A stretch of 64,000 bases of DNA from Candidatus Nanohalarchaeota archaeon (GTDB lineage: Archaea > Nanohalarchaeota > Nanosalinia > Nanosalinales > Nanosalinaceae), in contig JALDAJ010000001.1 in assembly GCA_022729235.1 (NCBI GenBank), positions 256,001-320,000 of the forward strand. Direction: 5' to 3'. Position numbers and translations under genes: made by a program. The notes under the pieces are model-generated. The model was not told where the DNA came from. It worked only from the letters and a program-made list of their open reading frames with translations, and did not search any database. Shown here piece by piece: positions 7,248 to 12,110 of the stretch. How positions within the stretch are numbered: position 1 is the stretch's first letter; every line of letters starts with the position of its first letter.

Positions 7248-7302
7248 ACGACTTACTCCCGTCAGGGAGTTGGTCGTCTGAGAAGACCTCTTTGGTCTTC
7301 GA
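7248..7302 (+). repeat. Two-hairpin module in the 23S trailer, homologous to 12028-12079 in RNase P RNA
   Basis: ACGACTTACTCC..GGAGTTGGTCGT-YTGAGAAGA..TCTTCGA is shared by both sites. Confidence 0.9.
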
Positions 7303-7425
7303 AACAGGTGCCTGGTGGATCACTTACCCAACGGCCGGACCTGCTAAGGTATACTTTTTCTGTATTTCTATCTCTATTTACCAGATAGAGAAAGATTTTT
7401 CTGCTACAATAGGACTAAACATACT

Positions 7426-8523
7426 ATGGAAGATGTTCTGAAGGATTATCCTCATCTCTATCAATTTCTACCCGACAACTTTGTGAAAAAGGCTAAACAG
7501 AAAGAAAGAGACGTGGAACACTCCATTATAGTATCTATAAAAAATAATTCCAACTATTTAGAGGTTTTGAATGACAGAATTGAAAGCTTGAAAGGGACTC
7601 CTGGTGAGAATATACTTGACAGATATTCCTCACAAGTAGATTCAAACAAAAAGTTTCATAGCTTTCTAGCAGAAATGAATTGCTATCTTCTGCTAAATGA
7701 GATTTTTGAGGACTTAGAACCCGTTAACGAAGATAGCTTCGATGAAGGTAAAAAACCTACCGATTTCTACTCAGAGAAACACGAAATTGACATCGAAGCT
7801 ACCTCTATTAACAAACACGAACCAGAGAGCAAACTATTCAGTTTAATTAGAGACTGGATAGAAGGTTTTGAGGAAAGCTATGAAGTGAGATTAATTAAGA
7901 AAGATAACTACAACAAATTCCCTTCCAACTATAAGGAAATAGAGGAAAATAGCAAGGAAGTAGAAGAAGTAAAACGTCTCATTGAGAACACGCCTCAACC
8001 TGAGACAATTGAAACAGATGCCTTCAAGATAACAGTAGAAAAATCTGATTTTGAAGAATCTATCTTCAAAGGTTCTGGTTGGGAATCTGCTGAATTTATT
8101 CCTGAAGATCCATCAAATTCTATTCGGAATCAGATAGATTCCAAAACAGACAAAGACCCTATATCAGACCACATGCTAATCTATCTAGATATAGATGGGT
8201 TTTTCCAGATGGATCATTCTTTGACAAAAATACTTCAGGGAGGAATTACTCATTTCGAACCGCCTATAGAACCAGAAGTGTCAAAGAAACTCAACACACA
8301 ACCAGAAGCGCTGAGAAAATATATGGAGGAGAATGGATTAATTCCCTCAGAAAATCAGCCTAGTGCTATACCTCCTGACGAAGAAGGTCTGTTTAAAGAA
8401 ATCGATGACTCGATAATTGGAGTAATCGCTTATCTACCCAATAGAAAACTAGTATTTCTACCAAATGTGTATAGTCAGAACCAGAAAGTTACTGAGATAC
8501 TAAATACCTTAGAACCAGAATAA
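7426..8523 (+). CDS. Hypothetical protein, possible PD-(D/E)xK nuclease-like fold
   Basis: 365 aa AT-rich ORF; LAE...KPTDF...IDIEAT pattern resembles restriction-endonuclease-like motifs. Confidence 0.5.
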   Translation: MEDVLKDYPHLYQFLPDNFVKKAKQKERDVEHSIIVSIKNNSNYLEVLNDRIESLKGTPGENILDRYSSQVDSNKKFHSFLAEMNCYLLLNEIFEDLEPVNEDSFDEGKKPTDFYSEKHEIDIEATSINKHEPESKLFSLIRDWIEGFEESYEVRLIKKDNYNKFPSNYKEIEENSKEVEEVKRLIENTPQPETIETDAFKITVEKSDFEESIFKGSGWESAEFIPEDPSNSIRNQIDSKTDKDPISDHMLIYLDIDGFFQMDHSLTKILQGGITHFEPPIEPEVSKKLNTQPEALRKYMEENGLIPSENQPSAIPPDEEGLFKEIDDSIIGVIAYLPNRKLVFLPNVYSQNQKVTEILNTLEPE

Positions 8524-8609
8524 GAGTCTAATATGTAGGCTAGGGGTATCTGAAAATTTCTTACAGAGATTCAGCTAGTTTTTTAGATTTTTCTGCACTA
8601 TATAGCAGT

Positions 8610-8762
8610 ATGAGCGATTCTGACGACTTTTGGAAAGTAGTGGCAGGAGCAGCAGGATTAGGAGGTCTTGCCTATCTGCTTTCTACGAAAAAGTGTCGTC
8701 AATGTGGTAAAAGAAATCCTAATGAAAACCAAAGATGCTCTAACTGCGGAGCATACCTATGA
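8610..8762 (+). CDS. Small membrane-anchored zinc-ribbon protein (50 aa, not in ORF track)
   Basis: MSDSDDFWKVVAGAAGLGGLAYLLSTKKCRQCGKRNPNENQRCSNCGAYL*; two CxxC motifs; ATGA overlap with the next ORF. Confidence 0.8.
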   Translation: MSDSDDFWKVVAGAAGLGGLAYLLSTKKCRQCGKRNPNENQRCSNCGAYL

Positions 8763-9094
8763 CCTCTCTAAAAGAGCTTCTTAGGATATCCGATATAGAA
8801 TTCTGGAAGGAATTGAGACATAACTGGAACCACGGAAGTGTCAAAGACCAGATGCTTTTCTGTCTTCTTATTACTCCAATGCTAACCTTCCTAGTATTCT
8901 ATAACAATGGAATGCCAAAAATACAGCAGTATTTTGTAGGCGGAATGCTCCTAGTACTATTTGTTTCAATTTTCAATACTTGGGCGTTTGCCAAAGGCGA
9001 ATATGAAGAAAGAAATTATAAGTGCAACAACTGTGGAAACCCTATGGAACACAAGTTAATAGAAGACCATACTTGCCCTGAAGATACAGAATAG
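8759..9094 (+). CDS. Membrane protein with C-terminal zinc ribbon
   Basis: Two hydrophobic helices followed by CNNC...HTC. Confidence 0.75.
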   Translation: MTSLKELLRISDIEFWKELRHNWNHGSVKDQMLFCLLITPMLTFLVFYNNGMPKIQQYFVGGMLLVLFVSIFNTWAFAKGEYEERNYKCNNCGNPMEHKLIEDHTCPEDTE

Positions 9095-9143
9095 AATGAT
9101 CGCTCTGCAAAAGATTTTATATCCTTAAGAGAAACTTGAACGC

Positions 9144-9365
9144 GTGGAAGTTGCAGAAAAAGCCAGTATAGATGCTACTTTGGGCACAGGACTTATTATT
9201 TCAGCACTGTCTTTATGGCTAATAGTTTTTCAGCTAGAGGAGACATTGTATCTCATTCATAGATCAGCTCAAGCCCTCTGGATACTAGGCATTTTCTTTA
9301 TTAGCCATAGTGTGATTGCCAGATTTACGGGCAAAGGAATAAGGGATCTCCTCAAGAGAGACTAA
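9144..9365 (+). CDS. Small two-helix membrane protein
   Basis: 73 aa, two hydrophobic segments. Confidence 0.6.
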   Translation: MEVAEKASIDATLGTGLIISALSLWLIVFQLEETLYLIHRSAQALWILGIFFISHSVIARFTGKGIRDLLKRD

Positions 9366-9492
9366 ACAAAACTAAACACCTCCTACCTCTAGTTAAACGC
9401 TCTCCTCTGTTTTTTGAACAGAATTAAACGGTCGTTCACGGATATGGCATTTAAGCACCGCCACCCACAGTTTTGGTCGAGGTGAAACACGA

Positions 9493-10464: not shown

Positions 10465-10528
10465 TCGACCCAGGAACCTCGGTAGCGCCGACAAACCTTT
10501 TTCTTCTTTTACTTCTCTAGTATACAGT

Positions 10529-11125
10529 ATGCCTGAGAGCCCAGAGGCGTTTTACTCACGCGGAGCCGAGAAATTTGCGGAGAAGAATTCTTTCGAGAAT
10601 ATGCCCCAGGAGTACATAGACCTTCTTGACCAGTTCATCGAACTCGTTCAAGGCGATGAAGTCTTGGACGCAGGCTGCGGGCATGGTAGAGATACAAACT
10701 ATTTTACCGAGAACGGGCTTGACACTATCGGGATCGACGTAGCGGGCGGTATGCTAGAGTACGCTAGGGAGAACCAAAAAGGAGAATATCTACGGATGGA
10801 TGTCAGAGAATTAGAATTTGAGGATAACAGGTTTGACGGCTTATGGTGCAATACCGTTCTGCTTTTCTTCCCGATAGGCGAGATGAGAGATGTGATAAAA
10901 GAACTTTCCAGAGTTACAAAAGACGACGGCGTGATTTTTGTCAGCTTCAAAATCGGAGAAAGCCCTATAATGCGCGAAAAATACGGTAGTGAAGTTAAAC
11001 ACCATCTTATACCTGAGGAAAAAGCCATAGACCTGCTTGAATCAGAAGATTTGGAGATAATCGATGTTTACAGATACGAAACTGGCGGAGGATTCAAGGT
11101 CGCCGACATCTTCTGTCGAAACTAG
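10529..11125 (+). CDS. Class I SAM-dependent methyltransferase
   Basis: VLDAGCGHG motif I, GIDVA, FDGLWC. Confidence 0.93.
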   Translation: MPESPEAFYSRGAEKFAEKNSFENMPQEYIDLLDQFIELVQGDEVLDAGCGHGRDTNYFTENGLDTIGIDVAGGMLEYARENQKGEYLRMDVRELEFEDNRFDGLWCNTVLLFFPIGEMRDVIKELSRVTKDDGVIFVSFKIGESPIMREKYGSEVKHHLIPEEKAIDLLESEDLEIIDVYRYETGGGFKVADIFCRN

Positions 11126-11163
11126 CACCAGATTTTAACGTTTCTCTCACCAATAACTCCTGT

Positions 11164-11580
11164 ATGTCAAGCCATGCCCCTCCTTTCCAGAACGGTGCAG
11201 GAGGCGTTGACCCTCTAGTATTTACAGCTCTGGGAGCCTTGATTGTGATCGTCATCATGTCTTTGGCGTATATCTGGTGGCTTCATAACAGGAGGGAGAC
11301 TATCCTGCCCGAGGAAGAGCTTGAGAAAGAGGATGAAACACAGGAAGACGTGAGAATCGACCGCATGGGATTGTCAAAACGGTCGGAAGATGTTCTGGGT
11401 GTCGTGATGGACGCCCCGATGCTGCAGAACGAGCTTCCAGACGAACTCGGTGTTTCGAAAGCCACAGTCAGTAACGCTGTAAGCGAGCTTTTCGACCGTG
11501 ATCTTGTGATGAAGAAAAAGAAGGCGAACACGTACCTTATCGAGCCTAACATGGATGAGATACGGGAACAGTCCCGCTGA
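11164..11580 (+). CDS. Membrane-anchored winged-helix transcription regulator
   Basis: N-terminal TM helix followed by QNELPDELGVSKATVSNAVSEL HTH. Confidence 0.85.
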   Translation: MSSHAPPFQNGAGGVDPLVFTALGALIVIVIMSLAYIWWLHNRRETILPEEELEKEDETQEDVRIDRMGLSKRSEDVLGVVMDAPMLQNELPDELGVSKATVSNAVSELFDRDLVMKKKKANTYLIEPNMDEIREQSR

Positions 11581-11593
11581 TATCGGCGTTGAG

Positions 11594-11601
11594 CTTAAAA
11601 A
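11594..11601 (+). promoter_or_regulatory. Putative TATA box of RNase P RNA
   Basis: CTTAAAAA about 25 bp upstream of P1. Confidence 0.5.
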
Positions 11602-11621
11602 TCTTGTCGTATAGGTTAGCG

Positions 11622-12110
11622 TGTTGGAGGCGGAGTGACCGCCACCGCTGGCGTTCGCAAATCAGAGATTTGCTTCCAACAGCGATCTCTGACGAGAACG
11701 CTGAGTGAGGAAAGTCCCGACACCGACTCAAACGTGGCAGCTGTAAGAGCTGTGGACCGGAAGGTCCTGGAGATCCATCGCAACCTCAGTAATATGAGGG
11801 TAGGTGGCTCATGGAGCAGCAGAAACGACACGTCCTGGTTCAAAGATGACGGCGTGAATGGTGGTAATGGCGTCAAAACCGACGCCACCAGCAAAAGCCA
11901 GATATTTACCAGGGATCGATGAAACGTGGCTCTGACACCCGGTGCAAGCCGAAAGAGCGCGCCGTGCAGGAACGAACCTGCCGGACCAGTCAACCTTCAC
12001 AGGTAGCCTGGTAGTTAAATGCGGTCCACGACTTACTCCTCTCGGGAGTTGGTCGTTTGAGAAGAGCTTTGCTCTTCGATAACAGAATCGGGCTTACTCC
12101 CGCCTCCACC
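11622..12110 (+). ncRNA. rnpB: RNase P RNA, long, with hairpin insertions
   Basis: GAGGAAAGTCC (CR-I), GCAGAAAC, TGAAACG, GTGCAAG, ACAGAATCGGGCTTAC (CR-V); P1 GGAGGCGGAGT pairs with ACTCCCGCCTCC. Confidence 0.95.

Follow-up and report, generated by a model that had tools for sequence, protein, structure and literature searches.

Genes and repeat pair in the window

The window analysed here comprises 64,000 nucleotides of a Candidatus Nanohalarchaeota archaeon genome (GCA_022729235.1, contig JALDAJ010000001.1, positions 256,001 to 320,000), and all coordinates below refer to it. It carries rRNA and RNase P RNA genes, and the same two-hairpin cassette occurs in the trailer of one and inside the other:

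554–2027, + strand, 16S rRNA gene (Rfam)
4186–4233, + strand, leader strand of the predicted 23S processing stem, pairing with trailer positions 7301–7345 (RNAcofold)
4280–7213, + strand, 23S rRNA gene (Rfam)
7248–7302, + strand, cassette copy in the 23S trailer (covariance models R1, 76.9 bits, and R2, 65.5 bits)
7303–7345, + strand, trailer strand of the predicted 23S processing stem, beginning directly 3' of the cassette's 3' G-A (RNAcofold)
11625–12108, + strand, archaeal-type RNase P RNA gene (RF00373, RNaseP_arch, E 2.6e-22, 79.8 bits, slightly below the gathering score of 84)
12028–12079, + strand, cassette copy in the RNase P RNA gene (R2, 65.9 bits)

The initial annotation had described both copies, and their sequences, coordinates and placements were reproduced. 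The 23S rRNA ends at 7213 by Rfam and the first copy begins 35 nt into the trailer. In the RNaseP_arch alignment the second copy appears as an insertion right after the 3' strand of P2, with J2/4-CR-V GAUAACAGAA as its 3' neighbour, i.e. directly before CR-V as annotated; we take the name given to this site, the P19 position, to be an analogy with bacterial type B RNase P RNA. The stems are identical and the loops different, as had been noted, with the amendment that in our own reading the loops retain some common letters.

From 7248 to 7302 the cassette consists of hairpin 1 (12 bp with a U.U), the linker CU, a G-A, hairpin 2 and a second G-A. The pattern ACGACTTACTCC-N4-8-GGAGTTGGTCGT matched twice in the window (7248–7277 and 12028–12056), against 0.00 matches expected from 100 dinucleotide shuffles. 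A two-hairpin fold was predicted for both copies, with z-scores against shuffles of −3.94 (23S trailer) and −2.57 (RNase P).

The orthologous 23S-trailer and RNase P copies of G001, a separate assembly from the same genus, differ in hairpin 1. The exact identity of hairpin 1 between the two copies is a peculiarity of the present genome (G000). Gene conversion of the whole cassette was considered and rejected, because hairpin 1 differs in G001 and the sequence of hairpin 2 tracks the site, not the genome.

Further copies and their helix contexts

With the covariance model, 14 copies were found at E<1e-3 in the 1.03-Mb genome, of which seven lie in tRNA introns, one in a ribosomal-protein mRNA leader and one, inverted, in P3 of the RNase P RNA. 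Those in the window, besides the pair above, are:

468–523, + strand, third full cassette copy, in the 16S leader (R2, 63.2 bits; fold z = −4.57)
11655–11705, − strand, inverted cassette-like element in the extended P3 of the RNase P RNA (R1, 25.3 bits; R2, 36.4 bits, E 5.8e-7 in the genome-wide search)
12418–12470, + strand, cassette variant in the intron of tRNA-Arg(UCU) (gene 12378–12570; R2, 29.1 bits)
29439–29486, − strand, weaker cassette-like match in the intron of tRNA-Ala (gene 29340–29525; R2, 25 bits, E 7.8e-4)
42081–42126, − strand, cassette variant in the intron of tRNA-Arg(GCG) (gene 42036–42171; R2, 43 bits)

The 16S-leader copy ends 31 nt upstream of the 16S 5' end; it shows compensatory changes in hairpin 1 and has a different hairpin 2 stem. 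None of the three full copies (23S trailer, RNase P, 16S leader) was covered by Rfam 15 at the gathering score, and a search of 7150–7700 with E up to 10 returned no relevant match. The tRNA-Arg(UCU) variant is laid out as CCUC-AAG-hairpin-C-GAGG, ACC, GA-hairpin-GA. Several tRNA introns consist almost wholly of cassette; in tRNA-Arg(GCG) the variant occupies almost all of the intron. The introns of tRNA-Trp and tRNA-Met contain a C/D-type k-turn (AUGA ... G-AUGAUUA) whose C stem is capped by the cassette, and the N+5 nucleotide of the guide beside this k-turn is the wobble C of the anticodon. A further copy is found upstream of an L18e-family gene, 20 nt away from its start codon.

The 23S-trailer cassette sits at the inner end of a 25-bp leader-trailer helix in the cofold, with an internal loop at 4200–4208/7326–7331, and the 16S leader-trailer helix is predicted to stop 3 nt 5' of its cassette. 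In the tRNA introns, the flanks as predicted form or adjoin, by eye, the bulge-helix-bulge (BHB) helix. By these contexts, which are minimum free energy (MFE) predictions only, the cassette appears to be located at helix junctions.

Covariation and kink-turn signature

Thirty-nine copies were aligned by fitting to the covariance model. In this alignment, 83.9% of cells pair compared with 65.4% in shuffles, and changes on both sides occur in 17 of the 20 pairs (130 cells against 34.1 ± 4.5; reached by 0/500 shuffles). All 12 pairs of hairpin 1 covary. Since both pairing and both-side changes exceed the shuffles, the cassette structure is, by this comparative signal, under selection.

Kink-turn positions are nearly invariant among the 39 copies (G1b in 38, A2b in 39, G at 3b in 39, C at 3n in 39, G2n in 39 and A1n in 35), in part through ascertainment, since the search models were built from copies carrying the G-A signature. 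The linker measures 2 nt in 38/39 copies, and an internal U.U is conserved in 22/39. The tandem G.A/A.G pairs of a standard kink-turn, with 5'-GA on both strands beside the non-canonical (NC) helix, are present at the level of sequence. The bulge is 2 nt long if the conserved terminal A-U of hairpin 1 pairs, and has the standard 3 nt only if that pair is open. The continuous non-bulged strand that leads from the NC into the canonical (C) helix in a standard kink-turn does not occur in the cassette. Each of the two helices is closed as a hairpin, so that the cassette is joined to its host RNA on the non-bulged side, 5' of hairpin 1 and directly after A1n, a topology like that of a k-junction.

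The G-C pair at 3b.3n is, as read from the alignment, a kink-turn signature of the U4 snRNA type. In U4 snRNA this pair is strongly biased to G-C or G-U, and Watson-Crick pairs at 3b.3n, G-C especially, are associated with k-turns that fold only upon protein binding, according to PMC4382518. Several intron variants have G1b replaced (UA or CA for GA), so the k-turn should be abolished there. Boxes C (RUGAUGA) and D (CUGA) with 10–12-nt guides were not found inside the cassette; C/D-like boxes adjoin it only in the Trp and Met introns.

The genome encodes L7Ae (TIGR03677, 142.6 bits, cut-off 134.6; one PF01248 match) as well as fibrillarin. Archaeal ribosomes, C/D RNPs and RNase P are all known to contain L7Ae as a subunit. 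In the leader of the L7Ae gene itself, a small k-turn-like motif was noted by eye.

Taken as a structured RNA module, the cassette probably forms a protein-binding kink-turn. More specifically, we favour with modest confidence a portable, L7Ae-dependent kink-turn module located at helix junctions of stable-RNA precursors.

Distribution and proposed spread

Copies were detected by the covariance model in 55 of 70 genomes of Nanohaloarchaeota, with up to 14 matches per genome. Outside the phylum, three outgroup sets yielded the cassette in 0/5, 3/101 (weak) and 0/101 genomes. The cassette is a lineage-specific, phylum-wide family, and its earlier presentation as a feature shared by two unrelated RNAs was too narrow. 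A comparison of RNase P RNAs and 23S trailers from related genomes, which the annotation had proposed, does reveal orthologous copies, but in a patchy pattern: the RNase P site is occupied by model in 5/19 genomes, including G001, G009, G011 and G012 (and by eye in G021), and the 23S-trailer site in 3/17. Among 13 genomes, the tRNA-Trp k-turn is capped by a full cassette in two (G000, G004), a partial one in two and a plain hairpin in nine, which makes the cassette an optional add-on to this k-turn. At most sites the cassette is dispensable.

Of the two explanations offered in the annotation, copying of the module gains support from the patchy occupancy of each site among genera, and a shared protein-binding site gains it from the kink-turn signature, for which L7Ae is the candidate protein. 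Genus-level patchiness, the inverted copy and the dispersed related hairpins described below together indicate spread by copy-and-insert, and the family appears to spread in this way into sites that tolerate an extra arm.

Such spread could also be that of a selfish or neutral dispersed repeat (MITE- or REP-like DNA, or intron-derived) with no function for the host RNAs, inserting into stable-RNA genes, spacers and intergenic DNA where hairpins are tolerated or processed away. We consider this explanation possible but rather doubtful. The patchy occupancy of every site and the number of matches per genome agree with it, as do the inverted P3 element, which is common to G000 and G001 (L032 1407–1459, minus strand), and the absence of the L18e leader copy from G001 within the same genus. 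Further agreement comes from dispersed hairpins of the form GAARAYC-loop-GRUYUUC; the two strands together have 99 matches, where triplet shuffles average 18.2, and these fall mainly in short intergenic gaps and in either orientation. Orthologous 16S-leader copies, however, are kept upstream of the 16S rRNA gene in 10/19 genomes of two families, with compensatory changes, and the strand-specific G-A...G-A flanks, which a DNA palindrome would not need, are retained in 8/8 stable-RNA copies with stems of at least 7 bp. Inspected by eye, the cassette flanks showed neither terminal inverted repeats nor target duplications, nor any target word in common. A selfish origin is also compatible with the L7Ae kink-turn module, and the two can coexist.

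Proposed role and alternatives

We infer the kinked fold, the binding of L7Ae and any benefit to the host from the sequences, covariation, distribution and contexts given above. The cassette would be a self-contained kink-turn module of about 46–68 nt, in which hairpin 1 would serve as the C helix, followed by a U-rich loop of 2–3 nt, the tandem G.A/A.G pairs and hairpin 2 as the NC helix. As the k-junction topology brings its ends next to each other, such a module would fit any single-stranded joint or hairpin tip. The invariant G-C after the G.A pairs predicts that metal ions do not suffice to kink it and that a protein is required, with L7Ae, encoded in the genome, as the obvious candidate. 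Once bound, the module may fix the geometry of the neighbouring helices, namely the BHB in tRNA introns, the leader-trailer helices of pre-16S and pre-23S rRNA and P2/J2-4 in the RNase P RNA, and it may tie the host RNAs to the supply of L7Ae. The k-turns of the Trp and Met introns and the L18e leader copy are possible contextual links to L7Ae RNPs.

[quoted passage not shown] A different hairpin-binding factor is also conceivable, as the dispersed intergenic hairpins have the stem sequence of hairpin 2 without the 5' G-A.

A k-junction that needs no protein, folding spontaneously at the molar salt concentrations of a halophile's cytoplasm and simply orienting adjacent helices, seems unlikely to us. 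The organism comes from a soda-lake metagenome, the known k-junctions fold in Mg2+ or Na+ and were not folded by L7Ae (PMC10573300), and high monovalent ion concentrations can fold k-turns (PMC4382518). Yet all 39 copies carry G-C at 3b.3n, and PMC4382518 describes this class as especially poor in ion-induced folding and typical of protein-bound k-turns.

We give still less credence to the RNase P and spacer copies being intervening sequences cut out of the mature RNA, with the cassette serving as a processing signal, to the splicing endonuclease or some other nuclease for example, instead of forming part of the working RNase P RNA. The family is indeed found mostly in tRNA introns, immediately at the BHB helix, the rRNA copies are in spacers destined for removal, and excision would restore a J2/4 of normal length, as in genomes without the insert. 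Against this, the RNase P flanks form no bulge-helix-bulge in the MFE fold of 12020–12091, and the insert's 3' G-A aligns to J2/4 nucleotides of the Rfam consensus.

An assembly chimera between the two loci, named in the annotation as what would overturn it, is next to impossible as the source of the copies' identity: an independently assembled Logan contig of 153,364 nt (run X1, which may be the source sample of this genome) spans 7150–12650, with both loci and the intervening 4.7 kb, at 0 differences, loops and flanks differ between the copies, and G001 has the cassette at both sites (50.8 and 46.5 bits).

Returning to the L7Ae-dependent module, a broader and more speculative version, to which we attach only a small likelihood, would make it a mobile k-junction handle that has colonised nearly all classes of stable-RNA precursor, being copied and inserted in either orientation. 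Its hosts would be tRNA introns, pre-16S and pre-23S spacers, RNase P RNA, C/D-guide introns and ribosomal-protein mRNA leaders, and through one small protein it might link the splicing of tRNA, the excision of rRNA, the assembly of RNase P and the translation of ribosomal proteins in a reduced genome.

Comparison with known RNA elements

A kink-turn normally belongs to one particular RNA as a fixed feature; here, a predicted closed two-hairpin kink-turn unit would be a building block that can be transferred between RNAs of a single archaeal phylum, marking precursors of tRNA, rRNA and RNase P RNA. The literature searched holds no description of the cassette, although supplementary tables, which lay outside that search, could hold some. 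If L7Ae binds, the cassette would show that portable RNP handles exist in nature, would provide RNase P RNA with a new L7Ae site adjoining the catalytic core, could aid BHB processing in cis and would offer synthetic biology an orthogonal L7Ae tag that is ready for use. If it does not, the cassette still represents a structured repeat family, so far undescribed, by which stable-RNA genes are shaped in DPANN-type genomes.

One likeness is to the k-junctions of the TPP riboswitch and DUF-3268, described in PMC10573300 as k-turns with an extra helix on the non-bulged strand; as in the predicted cassette fold, their C and NC helices go with a tandem G.A/A.G core, and the remaining RNA is attached on the non-bulged strand. 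A 23S-trailer variant in G005 even has, by eye, a nucleotide between G1b and A2b like the TPP k-junctions. In contrast to these, both C and NC helices of the cassette are closed hairpins, which makes the unit portable, its 3b.3n G-C predicts protein dependence, and it is found in tRNA introns, rRNA spacers and RNase P RNA of archaea in place of bacterial and plant riboswitches.

The U4 5' stem-loop and box C/D k-turns, bound by 15.5K/L7Ae, have the same G-A...G-A and a short hairpin as NC helix. The cassette also shares the 3b.3n G-C of U4 snRNA, whose type of k-turn folds only with protein (PMC4382518). It differs in that the non-bulged strand does not run on into the C helix, the loop has 2 nt plus a possibly opened A-U, and there are no C or D boxes inside.

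An intron-encoded box C/D guide is known for haloarchaeal pre-tRNA-Trp and tRNA-Met (see references in PMC2584109). Here too the guide's N+5 is the wobble C beside a C/D-type k-turn, but G000 and G004 have the cassette added on the C stem of that k-turn. The copy in front of the L18e-family start codon is comparable to the L7Ae 5'-UTR k-turn, for which autoregulation is described (PMC5539422 and PMC6298567), but is of two-hairpin form and not conserved in the same-genus genome.

For the RNase P site there are two comparisons. P19 of bacterial type B RNase P RNA is likewise an extra helix at the P2/P4 joint. P19 of Firmicutes-type RNase P RNAs is a single helix and is not known to carry a k-turn signature. 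Archaeal RNase P RNA has k-turns bound by L7Ae (PMC4245976, PMC5499556, PMC4919922), in P12, P16 and a double k-turn module, and the cassette would be another k-turn element of this RNA in an L7Ae-encoding genome. Compared with those of P12 and P16, it lies beside the catalytic core, from P2 to J2/4, and only in the minority of related genomes identified by the model. The P12 region of the present RNase P RNA retains GAUGA...AGA in our own reading.

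Cassette copies in the window

The initial annotation had placed the same ~55-nt two-hairpin cassette in the 23S trailer and inside the RNase P RNA. Both stretches were verified by reading the window, with exactly the sequences described, and a third copy was located in the 16S leader.

468–523, third cassette copy, 16S leader (repeat search)
554–2027, 16S rRNA gene (Rfam)
4280–7213, 23S rRNA gene (Rfam)
7248–7302, cassette copy, 23S trailer
11625–12108, RNase P RNA gene (RNaseP_arch, 79.8 bits, E 2.6e-22, slightly below the gathering score)
12028–12079, cassette copy, RNase P RNA

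The 23S gene ends at 7213, so that the 23S copy starts 35 nt inside the trailer. The RNaseP_arch alignment agreed with the proposed position before CR-V, the RNase P copy being an insertion directly 3' of the P2 3' strand, ahead of GAUAACAGAA (J2/4 and CR-V). The hairpin-1 pattern occurred twice in the window and not at all in 100 shuffles, and folding predicted two neighbouring hairpins for each stretch, with stability above shuffles. An assembly chimera between the two loci, which had been named as what would refute the observation, is excluded for practical purposes: a single 153-kb Logan contig, which is possibly from the source sample and thus tests the assembly rather than providing independent data, covered 7150–12650 with 0 differences, and a genome of the same genus (G001) carries the cassette at both sites.

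Hairpin 1 of the 16S-leader copy differed from that of the other two at 3 pair positions, with two-sided changes at 2 pairs (A-U to G-C, A-U to U-A) and a one-sided change at 1 (U.G to U-A), and the U.U mismatch was retained. The hairpin-2 stem was distinct (GAAACCUG/CAGGUUUC) with the flanks U-G-A-G ... C-G-A retained.

Covariance models and distribution

A first covariance model (R1) was built from the three window copies. On the window's own genome (G000; one contig, C1, of 1,027,595 bp) it returned the 3 copies and weaker matches, and of 31 related genomes it matched 20. A second model (R2) was made from an alignment of the 39 best R1 matches (E up to 5e-4) and found 14 own-genome sites at E<1e-3, including the three window copies. 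Seven of the 20 intron-bearing tRNAs among 35 ARAGORN calls had an R2 site, in the introns of Ser(GGA), Trp, Arg(GCG), Leu(GAG), Thr(CGU), Arg(UCU) and Ala; at least one context first taken as upstream of a tRNA (L042) is in fact the intron of Ser(GGA), a gene missed by the Rfam tRNA model. Further sites were directly 3' of tRNA-Met, 5' of tRNA-Pro and at the following positions.

Window 11655–11705, minus strand, extended P3 of RNase P RNA
G000:C1 236452–236499 (L188 753–800), full cassette in the leader of an L18e-family ribosomal protein gene, 20 nt ahead of the ATG and 3' of a TATA-like ATTTATAAA

In the Rfam search no family covered the cassettes, and the additional own-genome sites matched tRNA models only.

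At E<=1e-3, R2 matched 55 of 70 Nanohaloarchaeota genomes, and a single genome had as many as 14 matches. The earlier statement that two unrelated RNAs share a cassette is confirmed, in a frame that was too small. By family, with G000 excluded, positive genomes were 41/49 in f1, 8/8 in f4, 5/10 in f3, and 0/1 each in f2 and f5. R2 had no match in 5 assorted archaeal genomes outside the phylum, nor in 101 genomes of the phylum around a Woesearchaeota MAG. Among 101 genomes of the class around a Halorubrum genome (Halobacteria), 3 had one match each of ~28 bits. These weak matches were treated as chance; the DNA around them was GC-rich and without hits to Rfam families or tRNAs, and one sequence accounted for two of the three. 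Among the genomes searched, the cassette is specific to Nanohaloarchaeota.

Conserved anatomy and kink-turn signature

Across the 39 aligned copies, 83.9% of pairing cells could pair (65.4% in shuffles) and two-sided changes were seen at 17 of 20 pairs (130 cells vs 34.1 ± 4.5 in shuffles), figures flattered by the fitting of the alignment to the model. All 12 hairpin-1 pairs covaried and slid registers collapsed; both helices are strongly supported. Hairpin 1 had C-G as its second pair in 37/38 copies and a conserved mismatch (U.U in 22/39) adjacent to a C-G, U.G or U-A pair. The linker after it was 2 nt in 38/39, with U first in 36, and was followed by G (38/39) and A (39/39). Hairpin 2 opened with G-C (39/39), A-U (38) and A-U (37), and had G (39) and A (35) on its 3' side.

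Read as sequence, this is the signature of a kink-turn, in which hairpin 1 would be the C helix, followed by a U-rich loop and tandem G.A/A.G, with hairpin 2 as the NC helix. It departs from a kink-turn on a single point: its non-bulged strand is not closed, with the host RNA coming in 5' of hairpin 1 and exiting after the last A. k-junctions are defined by this topology (PMC10573300). Its bases and their covariation mark the cassette as a conserved RNA module, and its signature is that of a kink-turn/k-junction.

McPhee, Huang and Lilley reported that a Watson-Crick pair at 3b.3n, G-C and C-G especially, blocks folding by metal ions only, and that U4 snRNA k-turns, which are strongly biased to G-C or G-U at this pair, fold on protein binding only (PMC4382518). 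The cassette has G-C at 3b.3n in every copy, and a protein-dependent kink is therefore predicted. The genome has one L7Ae gene and also encodes fibrillarin; in archaeal RNase P, L7Ae is one of the subunits and binds k-turns of the RNA (PMC4245976, PMC5499556, PMC4919922). A result with A. fulgidus L7Ae counts against an L7Ae-dependent kink: it failed to fold the two kinds of k-junction examined, for which the authors blame the third helix (PMC10573300). The most likely reading is an L7Ae-dependent architectural unit, copies of which would have entered stable-RNA precursors and RNase P RNA at their helix junctions; in mature RNase P RNA it would presumably be retained.

Occupancy of individual sites

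Comparison of rnpB and of the 23S trailers among relatives found both sites occupied elsewhere, in a patchy manner; the cassette is optional at most sites. Among 19 genomes with an RNase P match, an R2 cassette was present at the RNase P joint in G000, G001, G009, G011 and G012, and a further one was recognised by eye in G021, of another family. Eight f1 genomes had a plain 6-nt J2/4 and no cassette. Two f3 genomes (L024 in G029, L025 in G025) had a different two-hairpin insert of ~75 nt at the P2/J2-4 joint, and their CR-V read AAUAGAAG in place of AACAGAAU. Of 17 genomes with a 23S 3' end, G000, G001 and, weakly, G011 had an R2 cassette in the trailer; by-eye comparison of 15 of these 17 (L074 and L077, both without R2 match, were left out) added variants in G005 and G007 at the same place, after a conserved GAGCUCUAACA. 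The steadiest site was the 16S leader, occupied in 10 of 19 genomes with a 16S 5' end.

The L18e-leader copy was not found in G001. The inverted P3 copy, common to G001, reads U-C ... U-C in the RNA where a k-turn requires G-A ... G-A.

RNA contexts

In the predicted cofold of the 23S precursor, leader 4186–4199 and 4209–4233 paired with trailer 7332–7345 and 7301–7325, and the cassette fell within a multi-helix junction, precisely where this long processing helix has its inner end. For the 16S precursor, leader 387–414 was predicted to pair with trailer 2101–2128 and leader 458–464 with trailer 2066–2072; the cassette begins 3 nt past the latter helix.

Introns of the 20 intron-bearing tRNAs were long (30–203 nt), and 7 shared the start xxCCUCAAGUUC. 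As only 35 tRNAs were called, split or multi-intron tRNA genes may have been missed. tRNAs with long introns in the window were (ARAGORN):

3730–3878
12379–12569
25015–25132
29341–29525
42038–42171

By eye, the cassette or a variant made up almost the entire intron in several tRNAs. In the variant, seen in 7/20 introns, hairpin 1 was CCUC-AAG-hairpin-C-GAGG followed by ACC; it started a few nt from the 5' splice site, with the 3' flank pairing with the anticodon loop. In the introns of tRNA-Trp and tRNA-Met, a C/D-type k-turn (AUGA ... G-AUGAUUA) had its short C stem capped by the cassette, and the 9–10 nt 5' of AUGA paired with the anticodon loop, the fifth nucleotide opposite the wobble C. 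Intron-guided Cm34 is known in haloarchaea and matches this guide pairing. The tRNA-Trp k-turn and guide were widespread (AUGAUUA in 11/13), with a full cassette as cap only in G000 and G004. A role of the cassette as the second L7Ae site that the C/D RNP of the Trp/Met introns would require was rejected, since 9/13 tRNA-Trp introns had a plain hairpin and 2 (G009, G012) a partial cap.

Alternative identities and origin of the copies

A mobile repeat is a less probable alternative for the cassette, and its main ground is a family of dispersed intergenic hairpins sharing the hairpin-2 stem (GAARAYC/GRUYUUC). These lie in many short intergenic gaps, often two in tandem and in both orientations relative to genes; with both strands counted, GAARAYC-loop-GRUYUUC matched 99 times in the own genome, whereas triplet shuffles averaged 18.2. 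Examples are:

G000:C1 158774–158792
G000:C1 217859–217875
G000:C1 487863–487883
G000:C1 605407–605427
G000:C1 626213–626257
Window 30831–30847
Window 32526–32544

Where the cassette has its 5' G-A, the dispersed hairpins mostly have C-A or U-A. Eight copies combined G-A on either side with a stem of 7 bp or more, all accounted for: those of the 23S trailer, RNase P, three tRNA introns, the tRNA-Met trailer and the L18e leader, and one intergenic copy. The shared stem suggests either a common origin of both in a dispersed repeat or a second, hairpin-reading factor. The dispersed family may represent REP-like repeats, processing sites or operators.

Gene conversion of the whole cassette between the 23S trailer and RNase P is unlikely, because hairpin 2 is conserved per site in G000 and G001 (23S type GAAGACC/GGUCUUC, RNase P type GAAGAGC/GCUCUUC) and identity of hairpin 1 between the two sites is confined to G000; the loops also differ. 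In G001 the hairpin 1 sequences of the two sites differ from one another and from G000. Hairpin 1 of the G000 16S leader is close to that of G003, of another genus. The identity in G000 may reflect a shared sequence constraint (the family consensus is near ACGNCUUNCUCC) or, alternatively, patchy conversion confined to the stem.

Other identities were dismissed by eye: a hammerhead or other small ribozyme, as CUGAGAAGA of the 23S copy deviates from CUGANGA, UUGAGA or UCGAGA being the reading in most copies; and an H/ACA guide, as the hairpins stand next to each other without nesting and form no pocket, although ACA follows some copies. A loose regex census of GA-hairpin-GA (85 matches vs 9–22 in shuffles) was too permissive and unusable because many matches were in coding DNA.

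Neighbouring features

Wherever both genes were found on one contig (13/13 genomes), the RNase P RNA gene shared the strand of the 23S gene and lay 3' of it. The gap was ~130–740 nt in seven genomes (G011, G018, G020, G022, G023, G025, G029) and is 4.4 kb here (window 7213–11625). Co-transcription of RNase P RNA with 23S is possible in Nanohaloarchaeota. 5S rRNA was not found in the window.

Several tRNA genes were followed within ~30–70 nt by a dispersed-type hairpin, beyond which a T-loop and acceptor 3' end recurred as a partial second copy:

Window 3635–3673, after tRNA-Cys
G000:C1 921870–921900, after tRNA-Trp
G000:C1 555560–555610, after tRNA-Pro
G000:C1 227830–227900 and 590610–590665, after two tRNA-Ser genes

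An ~80-nt element was repeated 3' of two tRNA-Ser genes. Possible explanations for the partial 3' ends are remnants of att sites, alternative 3' halves and multi-intron tRNAs that escaped recognition.

A small k-turn-like motif, CC-GAU-GA-C...C-GA-GG, was seen by eye ~10 nt ahead of the start codon in the L7Ae gene leader:

L065 1812–1870 (G000:C1 about 61995–62053), minus strand, L7Ae leader motif region

This motif is in keeping with the L7Ae autoregulation described in the literature (PMC5539422, PMC6298567).
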